Of a stretch of 45,005 nt of DNA, positions 16,128-37,567 are shown one piece after another. The stretch covers positions 1 through 45,005 of the IMG/VR virus record IMGVR_UViG_3300045988_045233; one strand, given 5' to 3'. The position numbers and the translations under genes are program-made. A model generated the notes under the pieces. The model was given only the letters and a program-made list of their open reading frames with translations. It did no database searches and was not told the origin of the DNA. Position 1 is the first letter of the stretch; each line of letters starts with the position of its first letter. This stretch comes from a virus.

Positions 16128-16162
16128 CTTACTGCAAAAATAGCATAAATACGAAAAATATT

Positions 16163-16212
16163 ATTGATTTGTAATCAGTGGGTTGCAGGTTCAACTCCTG
16201 TCACCAGCTCCA
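16163..16212 (+). other. attP core: 3' 50 nt of a tRNA-Thr(UGU) gene (anticodon arm through CCA)
   Basis: ATTGA-TTTGTAA-TCAGT anticodon arm (anticodon TGT), GCAGG-TTCAACT-CCTGT T arm, CACCAGC acceptor strand, T, CCA. No D arm or 5' acceptor strand lies upstream. The integrase gene is adjacent. Confidence 0.7.
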
Positions 16213-16217
16213 AAAAA

Positions 16218-16265
16218 ATGCCGTTCATTCGTGATATTGAATCACATGAACGGCATTTTCTTTTG
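16218..16265 (+). terminator. Intrinsic terminator following the tRNA fragment
   Basis: Perfect 11-bp stem ATGCCGTTCAT/ATGAACGGCAT followed by TTTTCTTTT. Confidence 0.65.
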
Positions 16266-16324: not shown

Positions 16325-17455
16325 TCAGTATTTCATCTTTTGCATTTCCTGTAACAAGTATGTCGGGTCGTTGTGGGAAACGTACTTGTTTGCTGTGGTG
16401 GAAAAATTTTTGTGGCCGAGGATAGCCTGCACGGCAGTTTTTTCAAGACCGCACTCCACCATCTTGCTGCTGGCCGTGTGGCGAAGGGTGTGCGGGTGCA
16501 CACCATCGATCTGACACTCCTGCATCAAGGCTCGGAACTTTGTGGCCACGTTTCGCTTGTCCAGCTTCGTTCCGGCCTTGGAAGGTATCAGCCACTCGCA
16601 CCCGCTGTCCATCATCCAGAAGGCGATGATCTTGTAAATGGGGTCGAGGATGGGGATGATGCGGTTTTTGCCCGCTTCCGTTTTTTCACCGCCCTGCATG
16701 TAGTGCTCTTTCAGGTACACGTTCTCGCAGCGCATGGAAAGCAGCTCATCGATGCGCATACCGGTATAGAGAAGCACCATAGCGATCTGGGCCGTCTGGC
16801 CGAAGCGCTTGTCGGTCTGGTAGGCGCTGATCCGGGCAATCTCGTCCGCCGTAAGGGTGCGCTCTGCCTTTCCGGCTGCGGCAGGAAGGTGAAGGAGCTG
16901 GGCATAGTTCTTGTTTATGATGTCCTGGGCCATTGCCCACTCACATAGCTGGCTGAAAAGGGTGCGCTGCTTCTCACACGAGCTGCGGGAGAGACCGTCT
17001 GCAACCATCTGGTCTATGATCTGCTGATAGTCCTCCGCTTTCAGGTCTCGCATTTGTCGGCTGTACAGCGGAGCGGATTTTTTGAAAGCCAGCTCGTATC
17101 CATTTATCATGTCCCGGCTGAGACTTGAAAACTTCGGCTGTGCCCGCCATTTTTCGTAGGCATCCGCAAAAGTACACTTCAGGCGTTCTGCCGGGGTGTT
17201 CTGGGCATTGTATGCGTCAAGCGCCTGGACGGCTTCTCCGGGCGTTCCGTATGTGCCCAGCACTTCCTTTTTCCCGGTCATGGCTACATAGGGCCTTGCC
17301 CGGACCCCTTTCAGCTTGTACACGCTGCCGCTTCCCTTTGGGCGGCGGCGCTTTTTTCTATGCACGGGAGCGGACGTTGCATCCTGCTGCTTTCCGCACC
17401 ACGGGCAAAATAAAGCCTTGTCCGGGATGTTTACGTGGCATCTGACACACTTCAT
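16325..17455 (-). CDS. int: Tyrosine integrase with an N-terminal zinc ribbon
   Basis: 376 aa with the catalytic pattern TGMRIDELL, HTLRHT, LGH and ANKYVSH (R..HxxR..H..Y). N-terminal CxxC...CxxC. RBS AAAGGAG. Confidence 0.9.
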   Translation of the reverse strand: MKCVRCHVNIPDKALFCPWCGKQQDATSAPVHRKKRRRPKGSGSVYKLKGVRARPYVAMTGKKEVLGTYGTPGEAVQALDAYNAQNTPAERLKCTFADAYEKWRAQPKFSSLSRDMINGYELAFKKSAPLYSRQMRDLKAEDYQQIIDQMVADGLSRSSCEKQRTLFSQLCEWAMAQDIINKNYAQLLHLPAAAGKAERTLTADEIARISAYQTDKRFGQTAQIAMVLLYTGMRIDELLSMRCENVYLKEHYMQGGEKTEAGKNRIIPILDPIYKIIAFWMMDSGCEWLIPSKAGTKLDKRNVATKFRALMQECQIDGVHPHTLRHTASSKMVECGLEKTAVQAILGHKNFSTTANKYVSHNDPTYLLQEMQKMKY

Positions 17456-31738: not shown

Positions 31739-32102
31739 GAAAGAAAAAACTGTACGTTTGGTCGATGTCAGCGAGCTGGAAGCTGACCTCAAAAAAGAAC
31801 TCGCCAAAGAAGATGCCAAGGGCAAGGGTGCCGATATCCTGTTCTGTGAAAGCATCGAAGATGAACTATCAGACCTCGAAAACCTTCCCACCATCGACCC
31901 GAAGTCTCTGCGGCCTGTGGCGCACTGGGAAGAAATTCATGGCTCCTGTGTGAGCAGCGCTGGGAAGAGCGGATCGTGGTGCGTACCTGCAACACGCTGT
32001 ACGAACCCGAAATGCGGAGAGGTCAATCCGTGCGGCCTCAAAACGCCGTTTTGTCCGATGTGCGGATTCAGAATGGAGGACGTGCCGTATGACGATGATT
32101 GA
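31731..32102 (+). CDS. Hypothetical protein, shared N-terminal module plus zinc ribbon (paralogue of 28287..28691)
   Basis: MDKKEKTVRLVDVSELEADLKKELAKEDAKGKGADILFCE...LPTIDPKSLRPV. C-terminal CPMCG. Confidence 0.55.
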   Translation: MDKKEKTVRLVDVSELEADLKKELAKEDAKGKGADILFCESIEDELSDLENLPTIDPKSLRPVAHWEEIHGSCVSSAGKSGSWCVPATRCTNPKCGEVNPCGLKTPFCPMCGFRMEDVPYDDD

Positions 32103-32595
32103 CCGCATTCAGTCATGGACACCTGACACCAACGAGCCGGAAACGCCGGATTACCGTGCCGTCAAAGCATGGTTTCAGCAGTGCAGAGATCTGGCGGAAC
32201 AGGTCGAGGCCCAAAAACAGAAGATCCAGCGCATCCGGGACACTGCAGAAAAGTGCACCCAGAGCATGAGCGGGATGCCCGCGGGCGGTGGAGCCGGTGA
32301 CAAGGTGGGCTTTGCCGTGGAGAGAATCGACACAGAAGAGCGGAACCTCAAGCAGATGGAGCTGGATCTCTGTGAGCTGCGCACCGAGGCTGCCCGGCGG
32401 GCCTACTGCCTGAGTGGGTCTGCACGTGCTCGTAAACAAGCTGACTGCATCTATGATTATTACGTCCAGAACCTGTGCCAACGCAAAATCGCGGAGAGCG
32501 TGAGTTTTAAAAACGTCAATGCCGTTTCCGTCTATATCCGGGAGGGGATGGAGGCACTTGCTGAAATTTGGGAAAATATCCAAACTGACCAATAA
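32089..32595 (+). CDS. Sigma-70 region-4-like / DUF1492-type transcription regulator (candidate late activator)
   Basis: C-terminal IYDYYVQNLCQRKIAESVSFKNVNAVSVYIREGMEAL HTH pattern. Last early gene before the late region. Confidence 0.55.
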   Translation: MTMIDRIQSWTPDTNEPETPDYRAVKAWFQQCRDLAEQVEAQKQKIQRIRDTAEKCTQSMSGMPAGGGAGDKVGFAVERIDTEERNLKQMELDLCELRTEAARRAYCLSGSARARKQADCIYDYYVQNLCQRKIAESVSFKNVNAVSVYIREGMEALAEIWENIQTDQ

Positions 32596-32799
32596 AACGC
32601 ACATTATTTTGGCACTTGTTTTGTGCCGTTTGAATCGACATTTGTGCTAACTTCCTGTATCATGGCATAAGCGGAACCGCGCAAAGCGGTGCGCCGCTTC
32701 TCAGCAGCTTCCAAAGCGCGGCCCCATACGGATTCTCCTTTCGTTCATGCCGCTTAACGCTTTTTCGCTTTGACACCGTGCTTTGCGGGCTGCTTCTAT

Positions 32800-32866
32800 G
32801 CGATGTAACATTTGGGTGCCCCACCGACCCGGGAGATGGGACGCGGTTCGACTCCGCGACATCGCA
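32800..32866 (+). ncRNA. tRNA-like acceptor/T-arm element with a non-canonical core
   Basis: 7-bp acceptor GCGATGT/ACATCGC, perfect T arm CGCGG-TTCGACT-CCGCG, discriminator A then CCG. The 35-nt core cannot form standard D and anticodon arms. Confidence 0.35.
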
Positions 32867-33046
32867 CCGAACGCCGCAAAGTCTGTAACGCGGCATGTCT
32901 GACGCATGGAGTGATTCACCACCGGTGTGCGGGTGGGTGTGGAATTCCTGAAATCTTGCCCACGCCCTGAAACCTCCGCCCGTGAACAGCAGCACCGGAA
33001 ATCCGAGCGGGCCAGCATGCCCCGCAGGATGTGCGTCAACTCAAGC

Positions 33047-33080
33047 AGCCCCGGCGGCGAACCGCGGGCTGTTTTTATTT
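33047..33080 (+). terminator. Intrinsic terminator
   Basis: Stem AGCCC(CG)GCGG-CGAA-CCGC-GGGCT followed by GTTTTTATTT. Confidence 0.6.
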
Positions 33081-33087
33081 GCTATAT

Positions 33088-33157
33088 GGCCGCCTGAGCG
33101 CAATGTGGAGCGCGGTGCGTGTGTGTAGACACGGCTGGTTCGATTCCAAGGGCGGCT
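33088..33157 (+). ncRNA. Degenerate tRNA-like element (probable tRNA remnant)
   Basis: 7-bp acceptor pairing (GGCCGCC/GGCGGCT), D arm GCGC-AATGTGGA-GCGC and TTCGATT loop are present. However, the T stem has only 3 pairs and the anticodon hairpin (CGTGT-GTGTAG-ACACG) has a 6-nt loop. Confidence 0.3.
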
Positions 33158-33163
33158 TTTTAT

Positions 33164-33239
33164 ACTCCGGCAGCTCAAGTGGTAGAGCAGCGGTCTCCAA
33201 AACCGCAGGTTGCAGGTTCGAGCCCTGCCTGGAGTGCCA
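33164..33239 (+). tRNA. tRNA-Trp (anticodon CCA), CCA-encoded
   Basis: 76-nt cloverleaf: acceptor ACTCCGG/CTGGAGT, D arm GCTC-AAGTGGTA-GAGC, anticodon arm GCGGT-CTCCAAA-ACCGC, T arm GCAGG-TTCGAGC-CCTGC, discriminator G, CCA. Position 8 is C. Confidence 0.85.
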
Positions 33240-33361
33240 GACTTTGCATGACCGGGGGACGGCATGCAGAGAGTAGCGGGGCATCCGGCCGCGAAAGTCC
33301 CAGATGCAGCGGCAACGTCTTACTGTCCGGTAAAAGCAGATAACGGCGTTGCTGCTTATAT

Positions 33362-33497
33362 GCCGTCATAGCTCAACTGGGAGAGCGCCGCCCATTTAAG
33401 GCGGGACAACGCTGGTGACACCACGGGAACATCGCTGCACAGCCAACCACTGCGCACATCCATTCCGTGGGTGCTGGTTCAAATCCAGCTGGCGGCT
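33362..33497 (+). ncRNA. tRNA-Lys(UUU)-like element with A33 and a 68-nt insertion at the variable-arm position
   Basis: Acceptor GCCGTCA/TGGCGGC, D arm GCTC-AACTGGGA-GAGC, anticodon arm CCGCC-CATTTAA-GGCGG, T arm GCTGG-TTCAAAT-CCAGC. Bases 33405-33472 are inserted between the anticodon and T arms. Confidence 0.4.
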
Positions 33498-33508
33498 ACC
33501 GTGATTTT

Positions 33509-33538
33509 TAGCTTGAAATAGCTTGAGGTTTAGCTTGA
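33509..33538 (+). repeat. Three direct TAGCTTGA repeats (starts 33509, 33519, 33531)
   Basis: Exact 8-mers roughly one helical turn apart. The third copy forms the 5' arm of the downstream hairpin. Confidence 0.6.
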
Positions 33539-33560
33539 GCAGTTTCGGGCTTTTTTGTTT
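33533..33560 (+). terminator. Hairpin plus U-tract immediately upstream of the late operon
   Basis: GCTTGA-gcagtt-TCGGGC (6 bp, two G-U pairs) followed by TTTTTTGTTTTATT. The RBS of the next gene starts at about 33566. Confidence 0.45.
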
Positions 33561-33577
33561 TATTGGGAGGTGAGCGC

Positions 33578-34402
33578 ATGGCGTTCGGCGAATCGTACGA
33601 GGAGTTTGTTGAAAAGTTCAAGCCGAAAAAGACCACGGACGACTGCTATACACCGCCCGGCGTGTATGCGGTCATACGGGACTGGGCTTGCAAAGAGTAC
33701 GGCATTGACCCGGCCAAAATCGTGAGGCCATTCTACCCCGGCGGAGATTATGAGCACTACGACTACCCGGAAGGTGCTGTGGTGTTGGATAACCCGCCGT
33801 TTTCCATTCTGTCTAAAATCTGCACGTTTTACCTCGATCGTGGCATTCCGTTCTTCCTGTTCGCTCCATCTTTGACAGCGTTTTCTGGAAGGGCAAATAA
33901 TATGCGGATGAACCATATCGTTTGCGACTGTAGTATCGAGTACGAAAACGGCGCAATTGTCAGAACAAGTTTTGTGACAAGCTACGGCGGGGACATCATA
34001 GCGCAGACCGAGCCTCGCCTGACGAAGCTGGTAAACGATGAGGTGAAACGCCTGCGACGCACCAAAACGGTACAGCTGCCAAAGTATACATACCCAGATC
34101 ATATTGTGACGGCTGCATTGCTTCAACGATACAGCCGTTACGGTGTGAATTTCAAAATTCACAAAAAGGATTGCGCTCCGATTTATGCGCTGGATGCACA
34201 ACGCTCCACGGGAAAAGCTATTTTTGGCGGTGGCCTTCTGCTGTCTGATTGTGCTGCGGCTGAGAGGGATGCGGCTGAGAGGGATGCGGCTGAGAGGGCT
34301 GCGGCTGAGAGGGATGCGGCTGAGAGGGATGCGGCCATAAAATGGGAACTGTCCGCGAGGGAGCGCGCTATTGTAGAGTATTTGAACAGCCATGAAAACT
34401 GA
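33578..34402 (+). CDS. N6-adenine DNA methyltransferase-like protein with a C-terminal AAERD repeat
   Basis: ATG after GGGAGGTGA. DDCYTPP and LDNPPF (motif IV-like) present. First gene of the late operon. Confidence 0.6.
   Translation: MAFGESYEEFVEKFKPKKTTDDCYTPPGVYAVIRDWACKEYGIDPAKIVRPFYPGGDYEHYDYPEGAVVLDNPPFSILSKICTFYLDRGIPFFLFAPSLTAFSGRANNMRMNHIVCDCSIEYENGAIVRTSFVTSYGGDIIAQTEPRLTKLVNDEVKRLRRTKTVQLPKYTYPDHIVTAALLQRYSRYGVNFKIHKKDCAPIYALDAQRSTGKAIFGGGLLLSDCAAAERDAAERDAAERAAAERDAAERDAAIKWELSARERAIVEYLNSHEN
34256..34330 (+). repeat. 15-bp tandem repeat x5 (AAERD pentapeptide repeat)
   Basis: gcggctgagagggat occurs five times in tandem, with one unit carrying a single substitution. Confidence 0.9.
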
Positions 34403-34423: not shown

Positions 34424-34891
34424 ATGGTGGTGGCGGTGGGTGCGCATCGGTTGACAGACAAGCAGAAAAAGAAGATCATTGCGGACTATGTGCAGCTGCA
34501 GAACTACACCAAGACCGCCAAGCTCAACGGAGTATCTGACACGACGGTAAAGCGGCTGATTTCAACGGCTCCGTCCGAAATGTTGAAAAAAGTTGAGCAA
34601 AAAAAAGAGCAGAACACACTTGAGATGCTGGACTACATGGACAGCAAGAAAGAGCGCGTTCAGGAGATCATAGACGTTTATCTCGGTGTCCTGACCGACC
34701 CGGAGAAGCTGGAAGGGGCGACCCTGCAGCAGATCACTACGGCGCTGGGCACGCTCATCGATAAATGGACCAAGATGGATGACATCAAACGGGATAGCAC
34801 GGCATCGGCCAAGGCCTTCGACTTTCAGACTCTCGCAGACCTTTTGCAGCATCCGGCCCCTGACCGGAACATCAAGGATTTTGAGACATGA
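34424..34891 (+). CDS. Terminase small subunit (start uncertain)
   Basis: 155 aa with an N-terminal HTH-like KKIIADYVQLQNYTKTAKLNGVSDTTVKRLI. Directly upstream of TerL, overlapping its start. Confidence 0.6.
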   Translation: MVVAVGAHRLTDKQKKKIIADYVQLQNYTKTAKLNGVSDTTVKRLISTAPSEMLKKVEQKKEQNTLEMLDYMDSKKERVQEIIDVYLGVLTDPEKLEGATLQQITTALGTLIDKWTKMDDIKRDSTASAKAFDFQTLADLLQHPAPDRNIKDFET

Positions 34892-36156
34892 ACATTCCTG
34901 CACCCTTCACGAAAAATCAGACCCGCTTTTTCTTTGACTGCTTCGACCACTGGCTCAATGTGGCCGAGGGCGGCAAGCGCGGCGGGAAAAACGTGCTCAT
35001 CACGATGGCCTACTGCGCCATCCTCGAAAAGCATCCCAGCCGCATCCATCTGATTGCAGGGGTATCCACCGCGACGGCGCGGCTAAACATTCTGGACTGC
35101 GACGGCTTCGGCATGAAGAACTATTTCGAGGGCCGCTGCCGGGAGGGCGTGTACCAGAACCGCGACTGCCTGTATGTGCAGACCGCGACCGGCGAAAAGA
35201 TCGTGCTGGTCTCCGGCGGCGGCAAGGCCGGGGACGAAAAGCTCATCAAGGGCAACACCTACGGCACCGCCTATATAACCGAGGTGAACGAGTGCAGTGA
35301 AGCGTTCATTCAGGAAGTGTTCGACCGAACGCTTTCCAGCCCGAACCGCAAGGTGTTCCACGACCTGAACCCGAAGGCGGAGGGTCACTGGTACTATAAA
35401 ACCGTTCTGGATTTCCACGAAGAAAAGCAAAAAGCAGACCCTCACTATGGCCTGAACTACGGTCATTTCACCATTGCGGACAATATGAGCATATCGGACG
35501 ACCAGCTCCGGGCTGTGCTGGCGACGTATGACCGGAAAAGCATCTGGTATGCCCGCGATATCTTGGGCCAGCGCAAGGCCGCCGAGGGACTGATCTACGA
35601 TATGTTCGACCCAAAGGCTAATGTCTACACTGTGCCGCCGGTGGCGATGCGGGCGGTTTCGACCCGAACGATTGCGGTAGACTACGGAACCTTGAACGCA
35701 TGTATTTTCGCAGACACGTATGACGACGGCGAGGTCGTCCGTGTTGACCGGGAATACCGCTGGGATGGCCGCAGGGAGCGCCGCCAGAAGACCGATGAAG
35801 AATATGCCGACGACTTCATGGAGTTTATGGGGAAAGACCCCTGCGCCGCCTATGTGGACCCATCGGCGGCTTCTTTCATTGCGGCGCTGCGGCAGCGCGG
35901 TGTCTATGTGATGGAAGCCAACAACGACGTTCTGAACGGCATCCGCCGGTGCAGCACCCTGATCGCCAAGCGCCGCCTTCTGGTGAATGCGTCCTGCGTG
36001 GGCATTCTGGAAGAGTTCGGGCTTTACCGCTGGGATGACAAAGCGGCACTGCTGGGAGTAGAAAAGCCAGTGAAAGAAAACGATCACGGCATGGATGCCA
36101 TCCGCTATTATATCAACTCACTGCCTGATTGGAGGTTTGAACGTGTCCAGACGTAA
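34888..36156 (+). CDS. terL: Terminase large subunit (PBSX-type)
   Basis: 422 aa with a Walker-A-like GGKRGGKN, ATPase then nuclease pattern (DPSAASFIAAL). Conserved position. Confidence 0.9.
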   Translation: MNIPAPFTKNQTRFFFDCFDHWLNVAEGGKRGGKNVLITMAYCAILEKHPSRIHLIAGVSTATARLNILDCDGFGMKNYFEGRCREGVYQNRDCLYVQTATGEKIVLVSGGGKAGDEKLIKGNTYGTAYITEVNECSEAFIQEVFDRTLSSPNRKVFHDLNPKAEGHWYYKTVLDFHEEKQKADPHYGLNYGHFTIADNMSISDDQLRAVLATYDRKSIWYARDILGQRKAAEGLIYDMFDPKANVYTVPPVAMRAVSTRTIAVDYGTLNACIFADTYDDGEVVRVDREYRWDGRRERRQKTDEEYADDFMEFMGKDPCAAYVDPSAASFIAALRQRGVYVMEANNDVLNGIRRCSTLIAKRRLLVNASCVGILEEFGLYRWDDKAALLGVEKPVKENDHGMDAIRYYINSLPDWRFERVQT

Positions 36157-37567
36157 CAAAAACCGCCCCGCCGGGGGCACAGAGAAACCGATGACGGCCA
36201 CGCTGGACGCATTTTCCAACCCGCTGTTCTCGCTGGGGTACGGCTCCCAAAGCCCGCTGGAAGCAACGGAATACCCCCTGACCCGGATGACGGACAATTA
36301 CGCTCTGCTGAACAGCTTGTACCGCAGCAACTGGGTGGTGCAGAACGTTGTGGGCTTGCTCGTGGACGATATGCTGCGAGAGTGGTACGACCTCAAGAGC
36401 ACCACACCGGAGCAAGGAAAGGCGATCCAGACTGTGGAGCGTTCCACCCGGCTCCGTGACCGTGTGAGCACTGGCTTGAAATGGGGCCGCCTGTACGGCG
36501 GTGCCGCCGGTCTCATCCTCATTGACGGGCAGGAGGACCTTTCCCGCCCGCTGGATACAGAAGCCATTCTCCCTGGCAGTTTCCGGGGATTGTACATCCT
36601 CGACCGCTGGCAGGGAATCAGCCCGGACGCAGGCCTGACCTTTGAGGGCGGGGAGCTTGTCCCGGAGTATTACAGCATCAACGATGCCGCCGGGCACACT
36701 GCCGCCCGTGTCCATCACTCCCGCCTTGTGCGGTTCGTGGGCCGGGAGCTTCCCGATCTGGAACGGCAGGCGGAGCTTTACTGGGGCGAGTCCGAGGTGG
36801 AAGCGCTCTATAATGACGTGGTGGCCCACGACAACGTAAGCGCCAACATGGCCGCATTGACCTTCCAGGCGAACATCAACACGATGGAGGTAAAAGGGCT
36901 GGAGCAGCTGCTCTCCATGTCCAGCCCGGATGTGCAGCGGCGTTTCTGGAACACCATGCAGGCCCAGAAGGTCCTGCGCTCCAGTTTCGGGATGCAACTG
37001 GTGGAGCAAGGAAACAAGATCAGCAACACCCAGTACACCTTTACGGGCCTGTCTGATGTGTACGAGAGCATGTGCCTGAACCTGTGCGGTGCGTCCCACT
37101 ATCCCATGACCAAGCTGTTTGGCCGTTCCCCGGCGGGCATGAACGCCACTGGCGAAAGCGACCTGAAGAACTACTATGACTACGTGGACACCCTGCGGGA
37201 AAGCAAGCTGCGGCCCATTCTGGACAAGCTGCTCCCGGTGGTAGCCCGCAGCGCAGGCATTGAGCAGCTCGACCTTGACGTAACGTTCCCGCCGCTGTGG
37301 ACACCCACCGCCAGCGAGACGGCGACGATCGCCAAGGAAAAGACCGATGTCATCATTGCGGCATTTCAGGCAGGGCTTCTGGATGCAGATGTGGCAATGC
37401 GCGAGCTCAAGAAACTGGAGGACGAGACAGGCCTGTTCGGCTCCCTGACCGACGAATTGATTGCCGCAAAGCAGGGCCAGACCTATCAGGACGTGACCGC
37501 CCTGCGCGACCCGCTGGCAGGGCTGATGACAGAAAAGACGCAGGAAGACACCGAGGAGGGCGAATAA
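36143..37567 (+). CDS. Portal protein (DUF1073-type)
   Basis: GTG after TGGAGG, 474 aa, follows TerL. Typical portal sequence pattern. Confidence 0.85.
   Translation: MSRRNKNRPAGGTEKPMTATLDAFSNPLFSLGYGSQSPLEATEYPLTRMTDNYALLNSLYRSNWVVQNVVGLLVDDMLREWYDLKSTTPEQGKAIQTVERSTRLRDRVSTGLKWGRLYGGAAGLILIDGQEDLSRPLDTEAILPGSFRGLYILDRWQGISPDAGLTFEGGELVPEYYSINDAAGHTAARVHHSRLVRFVGRELPDLERQAELYWGESEVEALYNDVVAHDNVSANMAALTFQANINTMEVKGLEQLLSMSSPDVQRRFWNTMQAQKVLRSSFGMQLVEQGNKISNTQYTFTGLSDVYESMCLNLCGASHYPMTKLFGRSPAGMNATGESDLKNYYDYVDTLRESKLRPILDKLLPVVARSAGIEQLDLDVTFPPLWTPTASETATIAKEKTDVIIAAFQAGLLDADVAMRELKKLEDETGLFGSLTDELIAAKQGQTYQDVTALRDPLAGLMTEKTQEDTEEGE

Follow-up and report, generated by a model that had tools for sequence, protein, structure and literature searches.

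A tRNA-shaped RNA gene with a predicted pseudoknotted variable-arm module in phages of the human gut

The locus

The window analysed here, a 45,005-nucleotide stretch covering positions 1 to 45,005 of the IMG/VR virus record IMGVR_UViG_3300045988_045233, is a complete, circularly permuted temperate siphovirus genome (ENA contig k141_95848). Upstream of its packaging genes lies a non-coding array of about 0.9 kb, in which a first and a second tRNA-like unit, a tRNA-Trp, a structured spacer and a further tRNA-like RNA follow one another up to a terminator. This last RNA, the element described in this report, resembles tRNA-Lys(UUU), carries A instead of U at position 33 and accommodates a 68-nt insert in place of the variable arm. 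Comparison with relatives revealed a tRNA-shaped RNA gene under selection on the + strand, one of a multi-family class whose members reside in a promoter-to-terminator RNA array preceding the packaging genes. Exact matches to the proteins of the window came from metagenome contigs only. Among cultured phages, the nearest portal protein is that of Agathobaculum phages (Clostridia; 36% identical), and gut Clostridia are the candidate host group of the siphovirus.

Architecture of the tRNA-like element

A search of the whole 45-kb window with the Rfam tRNA model RF00005 (gathering score 29 bits) recovered the element on the + strand with 45.4 bits (E = 1.3e-6), exceeding the threshold of the tRNA family. 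The alignment covered model positions 1-71, and all extra bases fell between model positions 44 and 45. An earlier reading of the window without database searches (the sequence-only reading) had described four intact tRNA helices, a loop CATTTAA with A at position 33 and a 68-nt insertion at the variable-arm position. All of these were recovered, the acceptor, D, anticodon and T helices being read individually in the sequence and the insertion being placed by the Rfam alignment. Its label of Lys-like is likewise sound: 16 of the 17 nt of the anticodon arm are identical to the canonical gut-phage tRNA-Lys(UUU) arm, as in the gut phage Phass-1 (CCGCC-CUUUUAA-GGCGG), and only U33A differs. The stem that it had drawn inside the insert, CCACGG/CCGTGG with 6 bp, is present but has to be extended to 8 bp. 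ARAGORN, run on the window, did not call the element and reported only the neighbouring tRNA-Trp.

The core bases expected of a tRNA are in place (U8, A14, A15 together with U48, G18 G19 and a G at the G46 position), and therefore the insert emerges exactly where the variable arms of class II tRNAs do. By analogy with canonical tRNA, U48 could pair with A15, and G46 could stack on the 13-22 pair. The minimum free energy fold of the 136 nt consisted of the cloverleaf plus the 8-bp insert hairpin, at -53.1 kcal/mol (z = -2.1). Folded alone, the insert was not unusually stable (z = -0.33), and the case for it therefore rests on conservation and covariation among relatives rather than on energy.

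The element departs from decoding tRNAs in three respects. Their 7-nt loop carries a pyrimidine at position 32 and U33, whereas the element reads CAUUUAA and a second allele among its relatives GAGUUAA. The variable region measures 68 nt, or 68-87 nt in relatives, as against 4-5 nt in class I and about 10-24 nt in class II tRNAs. The conserved, identity-matching discriminator of decoding tRNAs is also lacking. The coordinates of the element and of the other features of the window are collected in Table 1.

Table 1. Parts of the tRNA-like element, followed by the other features of its array and of the window
Feature	Position	Strand	Remarks
Whole tRNA-like gene	33362..33497	+	136 nt; family F1, insert type A; 165.6 bits with covariance model R1, built in this analysis; conserved in more than 150 loci
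Acceptor stem, 5' strand	33362..33368	+	partner 33490-33496; 7 bp GCCGUCA/UGGCGGC, one U-G pair
D arm	33371..33386	+	GCUC-AACUGGGA-GAGC, G18 G19; from the sequence; loop GG conserved
Anticodon-like arm	33388..33404	+	CCGCC-CAUUUAA-GGCGG; A33 at 33394, UUU at 33395-33397
Insert	33405..33472	+	68 nt, exactly at the variable-arm position
Linker	33405..33420	+	GACAACGCUGGUGACA; single-stranded; near-invariant among insert types; covaries with hairpin loop
Predicted pseudoknot, 5' strand	33413-33416	+	UGGU, within linker; pairs with ACCA 33446-33449
Outer stem P1, 5' strand	33421..33428	+	CCACGGGA; partner UUCCGUGG at 33463-33470; 8 bp, one G-U
Inner hairpin	33436..33456	+	UGCACAG-CCAACCA-CUGCGCA; ACCA at 33446-33449 is the predicted pseudoknot 3' strand
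G46 and U48 equivalents	33471..33472	+	close the variable region; read from the sequence
T arm	33473..33489	+	GCUGG-UUCAAAU-CCAGC; standard T loop
Acceptor 3' strand and discriminator U	33490..33497	+	CCA not encoded
Promoter-like site	32635..32663	+	TCGACA-17-TATCAT; 10/12 consensus positions; heads the array
tRNA-like unit 1	32800-32868	+	acceptor/T-arm minihelix; acceptor 7 bp GCGAUGU/ACAUCGC
tRNA-like unit 2, degenerate	33088-33157	+	Rfam tRNA-Sec weak, 17.6 bits; model R1 20.9 bits
tRNA-Trp(CCA)	33164-33239		third unit of the array
Terminator-like hairpin and T run	33532..33561	+	closes the array
Non-coding array	32596-33578
Late-type transcription regulator	32089-32595
Protein of unknown function, phrog_21498	33578-34402
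Large terminase	34888-36156
Portal	36095-37567
Integrase	16325-17455	-
Repressor, anti-repressors; replication genes, methyltransferase, RusA			present in the window

Conservation and covariation among relatives

The collected set comprised 136 distinct elements from 205 gut virus and metagenome loci. Two alignments were made: A1, the close family with 105 distinct sequences, and A2, with 35 sequences from all families, whose covariance model contains no pseudoknot term. An exact 21-mer over the loop and the start of the insert matched at least 119 IMG/VR contigs. Its one match in the genome collection lay in a metagenome bin that bears the label Oxalobacter; the contig is probably of phage origin and mis-binned. 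Where the sample source was stated, it was human gut or faeces. About 32 true family members were obtained from a metagenome scan anchored inside the insert, since a loop-based search would bias the ascertainment of the loop, and all of them read CAUUUAA. A pattern scan for C32 with a base other than A at position 33 gave 75 matches, none of them homologous.

In A1, 93.7% of the cells form standard pairs and 12 pairs are altered on both sides; none of 500 shuffles attained the observed values, and sliding the partners by 1-3 columns lowered pairing to 33-43%. In A2, 29 of the 40 pairs are altered on both sides. Compensation is found in every part of the molecule. Within A1, acceptor pair 5-68 occurs as UG (76), UA (20) and CG (7), T-stem pair 51-63 as UA (65), CG (33) and UG (7), and D-stem pair 11-24 as CG (103) and UA (2), and acceptor pairs 6-67 (CG/UA/UG) and 7-66 (AU/GC) are also compensated among relatives. 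For the outer stem P1 of the insert, seven of the eight pairs are altered on both sides between families, and its G-U pair occurs in 71 of 105 sequences. G-U pairs are frequent, and on the opposite strand they would turn into C-A mismatches, indicating that the selected molecule is the + strand RNA.

These data bear on the possibility that a tRNA-Lys gene was broken by an insertion and a point mutation. The missing ARAGORN call, A33 and the 68-nt insert are all what a damaged gene might display, and the sequence-only reading had itself named neutral decay without compensatory change as the outcome contrary to its own proposal. However, the element is carried by more than 200 loci, and covariation in all helices, the insert included, rules out a decaying pseudogene. 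Furthermore, MT839005 (locus L001), a human faecal phage record with the same layout, has an insert about 91% identical to that of the window, compared with 78.5% for the aligned part of its intergenic array, so that the insert is conserved above its flanks. A33 is invariant in the close family and retained in the second allele. Hence a pseudogene can be given next to no credence.

The insert as a pseudoknotted module

Comparative analysis showed that the insert has the features of a folded module with an outer stem (P1), an inner hairpin and a predicted 4-bp pseudoknot between linker and hairpin loop. Five insert types were distinguished, of 68 nt (type A, that of the window), 82-87 nt (type B, with an extra helix), 69 nt (C), 68 nt (D) and 69-71 nt (E). 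The P1 and inner-hairpin sequences are wholly different between these types, yet their pairing is retained. Common to all types are P1, the inner hairpin, a near-invariant linker of the form (G/U)(A/C)AAC-R-Y-UGRY-GAYA and a loop that includes RCCA or AUCA.

The tetramers of linker and loop change together. UGGU/ACCA occurs in most of family F1, that of the window; UGGC/GCCA is found in all of the sister family F2 and also in L371 within type A; and UGAU/AUCA occurs in types D and E (about 19 contigs). UGGU/GCCA, UGGU/ACCG and UGGU/ACUA represent wobble intermediates (L041/L083), and the tetramers are mismatched in a few single sequences. In A2, an alignment that was not fitted to the pseudoknot, the four pairs are 94.7% paired, one of them being GC in 26 and AU in 5 sequences and another UA in 24, CG in 5 and UG in 1.

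Three other pairings of the linker were considered and rejected. The pairing GGUG:CAUC with the junction strand was dropped because it has no equivalent in F2 or in the further sister family F3, and because single variants are split between support and contradiction. The register GUUGG:CCAAC is present in type A only and is broken in the window itself. A T-box-like pairing of the linker with the element's own NCCA end would require a covariation of discriminator and linker, which is not seen.

Rfam 15 contains no family for the module. Rfam was run over the whole window at the gathering threshold and over 32000-34200 with E values up to 10. Apart from tRNA hits it gave chance matches only, and no ribozyme, intron, tmRNA, YrlA, GOLLD or ROOL family matched. 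A further insert variant (…CCACGGGAAUGUCUCUGUCCGGACAACCAGUCUGCUCC…) sits on a Lys-like body at L232:2449-2557 and is truncated by the contig end. Further module types probably exist beyond A-E.

It is conceivable that the 68 nt are an intervening sequence, removed by self-cleavage and ligation or by an enzyme to leave a tRNA of about 73 nt with A33. The insert lies exactly between positions 45 and 46, its removal would restore a normal variable loop, and P1 brings its ends together. Against this stand the lack of any Rfam intron or ribozyme match in the scan at E up to 10 and of a bulge-helix-bulge motif at the junctions inspected by eye. In addition, the linker of about 15 nt is the most conserved part and is predicted to pair with the inner loop, which suits a domain of the mature RNA, and inserts of 68-87 nt with a common core suggest a functional module. 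To our knowledge, bacterial tRNA introns are group I introns situated in the anticodon loop. Removal of the insert is accordingly considered very improbable.

Sister families, loop alleles and the question of decoding

The module is also carried by other tRNA-like bodies. Family F2 (16 viral contigs) has an 8-bp "anticodon" stem and an encoded CCA end, and its loops read CUGAUAC or CUGGUAC in near-identical sequences or are reduced to a triloop. Family F3 (17 contigs) has the body of the window's RNA with a 6-nt loop, GUUGCA or UUUGCA, and one F3 member group retains CAUUUAA. Judged from their sequences, these F2 and F3 sisters share the module but have arms unable to decode. F2 came to light in L056, where the covariance model built in this analysis recognised another tRNA-like gene with an insert at 67.9 bits (Rfam tRNA, 44 bits).

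Within the family of the window, the loop alleles differ at positions 32 and 34, which take discrete states, and agree in A33. The allele GAGUUAA (G32, A33, anticodon GUU) occurs at 18 loci on otherwise identical bodies with type B and C inserts, and AAUUUAA occurs on the same body at one locus. A cis target complementary to the loop was sought in the flanks as UUAAAUG or UUAACUC following the loop allele, and none was found. When the body without the insert was used for BLAST, the only matches besides MT839005 were weak ones to a tRNA-Thr and to the tRNA-Lys of Phass-1.

The likeness to tRNA-Lys raises the question of whether the element is a decoding tRNA-Lys(UUU) that is charged by LysRS, reads AAA and AAG, and is protected from anticodon nucleases by U33A and its bulky arm. 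The canonical cloverleaf dimensions, the D-loop GG, the standard T loop and the possible A15-U48 and G46 contacts would agree with such a function, as would an anticodon arm that is a real tRNA-Lys arm except at position 33. The anticodons of the two alleles, UUU and GUU, together serve the AAN codon box, and ordinary tRNAs (Trp, Met, Lys) fill other slots of the same arrays. Moreover, in E. coli a tRNA with a large variable-loop insert could still be charged and used by EF-Tu and the ribosome (PMC5397188), and phage tRNAs that escape nucleases through anticodon-arm changes are on record (PMC11464382, PMC12409363, PMC10264068).

Several observations nevertheless speak against a decoding role. 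U33 is near-universal in decoding tRNAs, and in the second allele 32 and 33 are both purines. The LysRS and AsnRS of E. coli use the discriminator base as an identity element, whereas among the 205 loci it is U (109) or A (96) about equally, with G in 3 and C in 2, and does not track the loop allele. Canonical tRNA-Lys(UUU) is encoded as well in several relatives, about 450 nt downstream of the element in L018, L083 and L364. The module is shared with sister families whose arms cannot decode, and the strict conservation of linker and pseudoknot is left unexplained by mere tolerance of an insert. A nuclease-resistant decoding tRNA-Lys is therefore regarded as unlikely. A non-decoding RNA is favoured because of the non-decoding sister arms, the purines at 32 and 33 in one allele, the free discriminator and the co-occurring canonical tRNA-Lys.

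The accessory tRNAs about 450 nt downstream of the element (L018:698-772, L083:4285-4359, L010:3321-3396, L012:1260-1334 and others) are Lys(UUU) or Met/Ile2(CAU) tRNAs. They have a common acceptor stem and D arm (GCCGCUUUAGCUCAGUCGGCCAGAGCA) on which the anticodon and T arms are swapped, which suggests a modular exchange of tRNA halves between phages.

The RNA array

The array is headed by the promoter-like site, and a -10-like TAAAAT box is found at the equivalent place in relatives. Terminators are clearer in relatives, directly 3' of the element. Each array unit is preceded by a hairpin and a YUUMUAU leader, and in relatives the units are shuffled or swapped for ordinary tRNAs (Met, Lys). 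F3 relatives have the element in the equivalent position but standing alone, in the order direct repeats, promoter, leader, element, terminator, HNH endonuclease and terminase.

This layout leads to the possibility that the element is a cis-acting part of the late-operon leader, providing RNase P/RNase Z punctuation or termination-modulating structures, with the released RNA having no function in trans. In all families the element is placed between a promoter with upstream repeats and the HNH or terminase genes, followed by a terminator; the hairpin and YUUMUAU leader ahead of each unit, together with a unit 1 that is merely an acceptor/T-arm minihelix, would also suit a processing signal. However, processing needs only the acceptor and T arms, so that the invariant anticodon arm, the loop alleles and the covarying pseudoknot would be unexplained. 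The terminator, moreover, sits 3' of the element, and therefore the array looks like a closed RNA operon. A purely cis-acting role thus seems rather improbable.

Unit 1 consists of the acceptor stem and a 5-bp T arm (CGCGG-UUCGACU-CCGCG) with discriminator A and an encoded CC, and a hairpin region, about 20 to 90 nt long among relatives, replaces the D and anticodon arms. Its acceptor is compensated between relatives (GCGAUAC/GUAUCGC in L001), and the unit could be a minihelix that imitates the acceptor end of a tRNA. In L031:5780-5856 the unit 1 slot is occupied by a full tRNA for which ARAGORN gave an anticodon of 4 bases (attg), equal to an 8-nt anticodon loop. Unit 2 has intact acceptor and D arms, a central arm that differs among relatives, no variable loop and a weakened T stem, and its position directly upstream of tRNA-Trp is kept in most relatives.

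The spacer at 33240-33361 (+) contains the conserved sequence …AUAGCGGGGCAUCCGGCCGCGAAAGUYCYRGAUGC…, followed by a hairpin and UUAUAU, and recurs at L321:4450-4550. It precedes the element in the window, and in L321 the same conserved spacer precedes a canonical tRNA-Lys(UUU) that occupies the element's slot. Its stem GCAUCYGG/YCRGAUGC shows C-G, U-G and C-A variation, and the spacer may be a small RNA or a processing element.

Several repeats surround the array. Between the element and the terminator-like hairpin, three direct copies of UAGCUUGA with 10- and 12-nt spacing lie at 33509-33538 (+); there are also relatives with a different trailer devoid of UAGCUUGA repeats. Just upstream of the array promoter, about four copies of GTCCGATTTGTCCGGAAT are present in L321:4020-4095 and about five of (C)GCACTGTTTT in L375:4330-4400, which are likely to be binding sites of the late activator. 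Instead of those repeats, the window has a palindrome GGCAC-N7-GTGCC at about 32622-32638.

Outside the array, the 3' part of a tRNA-Thr(UGU) gene lies in non-coding DNA beside the integrase gene at 16152-16218 (+), comprising the anticodon arm AUUGA-UUUGUAA-UCAGU, the T arm, the acceptor 3' strand, U73 and CCA. This fragment is probably attP, which would imply integration into a host tRNA-Thr gene. The element itself was considered as an attP remnant and discarded, as the attP-like fragment lies elsewhere and the element is a complete tRNA with RNA-level covariation.

An unrelated, conserved hairpin motif, GGCCCYGYURCGGCGGGACAACY, arose as a false positive of the pattern scan. It is located 60-90 nt upstream of an MA(D/N/G) open reading frame in many environmental viral contigs (L124, L130, L136, L143, L146 and others) and may be a cis-regulatory element.

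A possible decoy for tRNA-targeting factors

The reading that we prefer, though tentatively and as something short of probable, is that the element is a tRNA mimic that does not decode and may serve as a decoy for factors targeting tRNA. According to this proposal, the array's own promoter would transcribe the element as the last unit, giving a stable, L-shaped, tRNA-derived RNA. The tRNA body, with its acceptor, D and T arms and core contacts, would let host tRNA-processing enzymes excise and stabilise the RNA, and the 68-nt domain would fold as a compact appendage next to the anticodon stem. The RNA might then act in trans as a pseudo-substrate that is bound and not consumed. Its target would be a host factor recognising the tRNA-Lys anticodon arm, most plausibly an anticodon nuclease belonging to an abortive-infection system. 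With A33, the base 5' of a PrrC-type cleavage site would be lost, and the extra domain may strengthen binding or provide bulk at the 39-45 region, besides keeping the RNA off translation.

The sequence-only reading had placed the target of PrrC, RloC, AriB and some retron effectors in tRNA-Lys around positions 33-34. This is correct for PrrC, which cleaves 3' of U33 (PMC2610378), and incorrect for AriB, whose site is 40/41 (PMC11464382). By analogy with known nucleases, the constant A33 at a PrrC-type cleavage junction fits a decoy, and the discrete loop alleles look like products of an arms race. Lys(UUU), Asn(GUU) and Thr(UGU) are all targets of AriB, a single defence nuclease (PMC12409363), and variant tRNAs are a phage counter to tRNA nucleases (PMC11464382, PMC10264068). 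Among the three readings offered from the sequence, a tRNA-derived structured RNA or a decoy agrees best with the sister RNAs, the loop alleles, the free discriminator and the co-occurring tRNA-Lys, and a resistant replacement tRNA is weakened. Phage RNA mimics such as pseudo-ToxI and RNA anti-CRISPRs reportedly neutralise defence nucleases as well.

A number of points weigh against a decoy. No tRNA nuclease, RNA ligase, repair or defence gene was recognised among the 36 open reading frames of the window with PHROGs, and the ten without a PHROGs assignment gave nothing when also run through Pfam and PADLOC. A33 stimulates the γ-toxin on a stem-loop substrate, showing that it does not block every anticodon nuclease (PMC2275089), and the 40/41 site of AriB calls for similar caution. 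The canonical body of the window's element, with a 5-bp anticodon stem, a 7-nt loop, the D-loop GG, a standard T loop and possible A15-U48 and G46 contacts, leaves decoding structurally conceivable, and an engineered variable-loop insert of about 98 nt was tolerated by synthetase, EF-Tu and ribosome (PMC5397188). Anti-defence factors are often made early, so that a position at the start of the late operon is unusual for one. Finally, the loops of F2 and F3 are unlike those of any known tRNA, and one decoy logic may not span the whole class.

A broader proposal is conceivable but doubtful. The elements could form a modular, programmable class of phage anti-defence RNAs, in which the constant body and the knotted domain serve as handle or trap and a swappable loop sets which enzyme is neutralised. 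The loops would then be UUU with A33, GUU with G32 and A33, and the 6-nt and long-stem variants, and expression from the start of the late operon would supply the RNAs just ahead of the structural proteins, by which many abortive-infection systems are triggered. In a variant of this proposal, the RNA would be charged, kept off the ribosome and donate lysine to a non-ribosomal reaction.

Comparison with known systems

Full-text literature searching found no description of such a tRNA-like RNA. As far as Rfam 15 and the literature searches show, natural tRNAs with a structured variable-arm domain of 68-87 nt have not been described before, and an engineered fusion of aptamer and tRNA is the sole counterpart found. 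Phages of the human gut commonly carry the family, and its covariation-backed fold and discrete loop alleles would offer a direct test of tRNA mimicry by phages. If the element is a decoy, the tRNA-centred contest of bacteria with phages would gain an RNA-based counter-measure, in gut Clostridia, whose defences of this kind have received little study; if it decodes, the ribosome would naturally accept double-sized tRNAs without U33. For annotation, standard tRNA finders miss the element or would mislabel it as tRNA-Lys.

The nuclease-resistant phage tRNAs of the T5 tRNA-Lys type are likewise phage-encoded, with a host-type anticodon arm changed near the nuclease site (PMC11464382, PMC12409363, PMC11555353), and involve the same Lys(UUU) and Asn(GUU) anticodon types. 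The element agrees with them in combining a host-type anticodon (UUU) with a substitution, U33A, at the 33/34 site of PrrC (PMC2610378). Unlike it, however, they are normal-sized decoding replacements for the cleaved host tRNA; in the element position 33 itself is altered, the 68-nt domain is predicted to be knotted, the discriminator is free and the sisters are apparently non-decoding.

The pseudo-ToxI of phage phiTE and the RNA anti-CRISPRs are also said to be short structured RNAs with which phages copy a host RNA and soak up or block a defence nuclease, although what they reportedly mimic is an antitoxin RNA or a CRISPR repeat and not a tRNA. The tRNA-like domain of tmRNA, bacterial YrlA and the T4 "species 1/2" RNAs are tRNA-shaped modules with extra domains that are processed by the tRNA machinery, some of them beside phage tRNA genes. 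In contrast to tmRNA and YrlA, the element keeps all four arms, and the extra domain replaces the variable loop only. In tmRNA the tRNA-like domain lacks an anticodon arm and is accompanied by a tag reading frame and pseudoknots. With D and anticodon arms present, no tmRNA called by ARAGORN and no match to Rfam tmRNA, the element is not a tmRNA. Nor does it group with intron-containing tRNAs, as the insert is at 45/46, matches no intron or ribozyme family at E up to 10 and shows no bulge-helix-bulge by eye.

Class II tRNAs (Leu, Ser, bacterial Tyr, Sec) and allo-tRNAs share the canonical L-shape and an extra helix between positions 45 and 46. Their natural arms are simple hairpins of about 10-24 nt, whereas the module of 68-87 nt comprises a linker of about 15 nt, a nested hairpin and the predicted pseudoknot. 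The closest likeness in size is the engineered V-Spinach tRNA, in which a large structured RNA was placed at the same variable-loop site and the chimera was stable and processed in E. coli, a fusion longer than any natural tRNA known to its authors (PMC5397188). V-Spinach is a man-made aptamer in a tRNA that kept U33 and decoding, whereas the natural module of the phage element has a conserved fold of its own.

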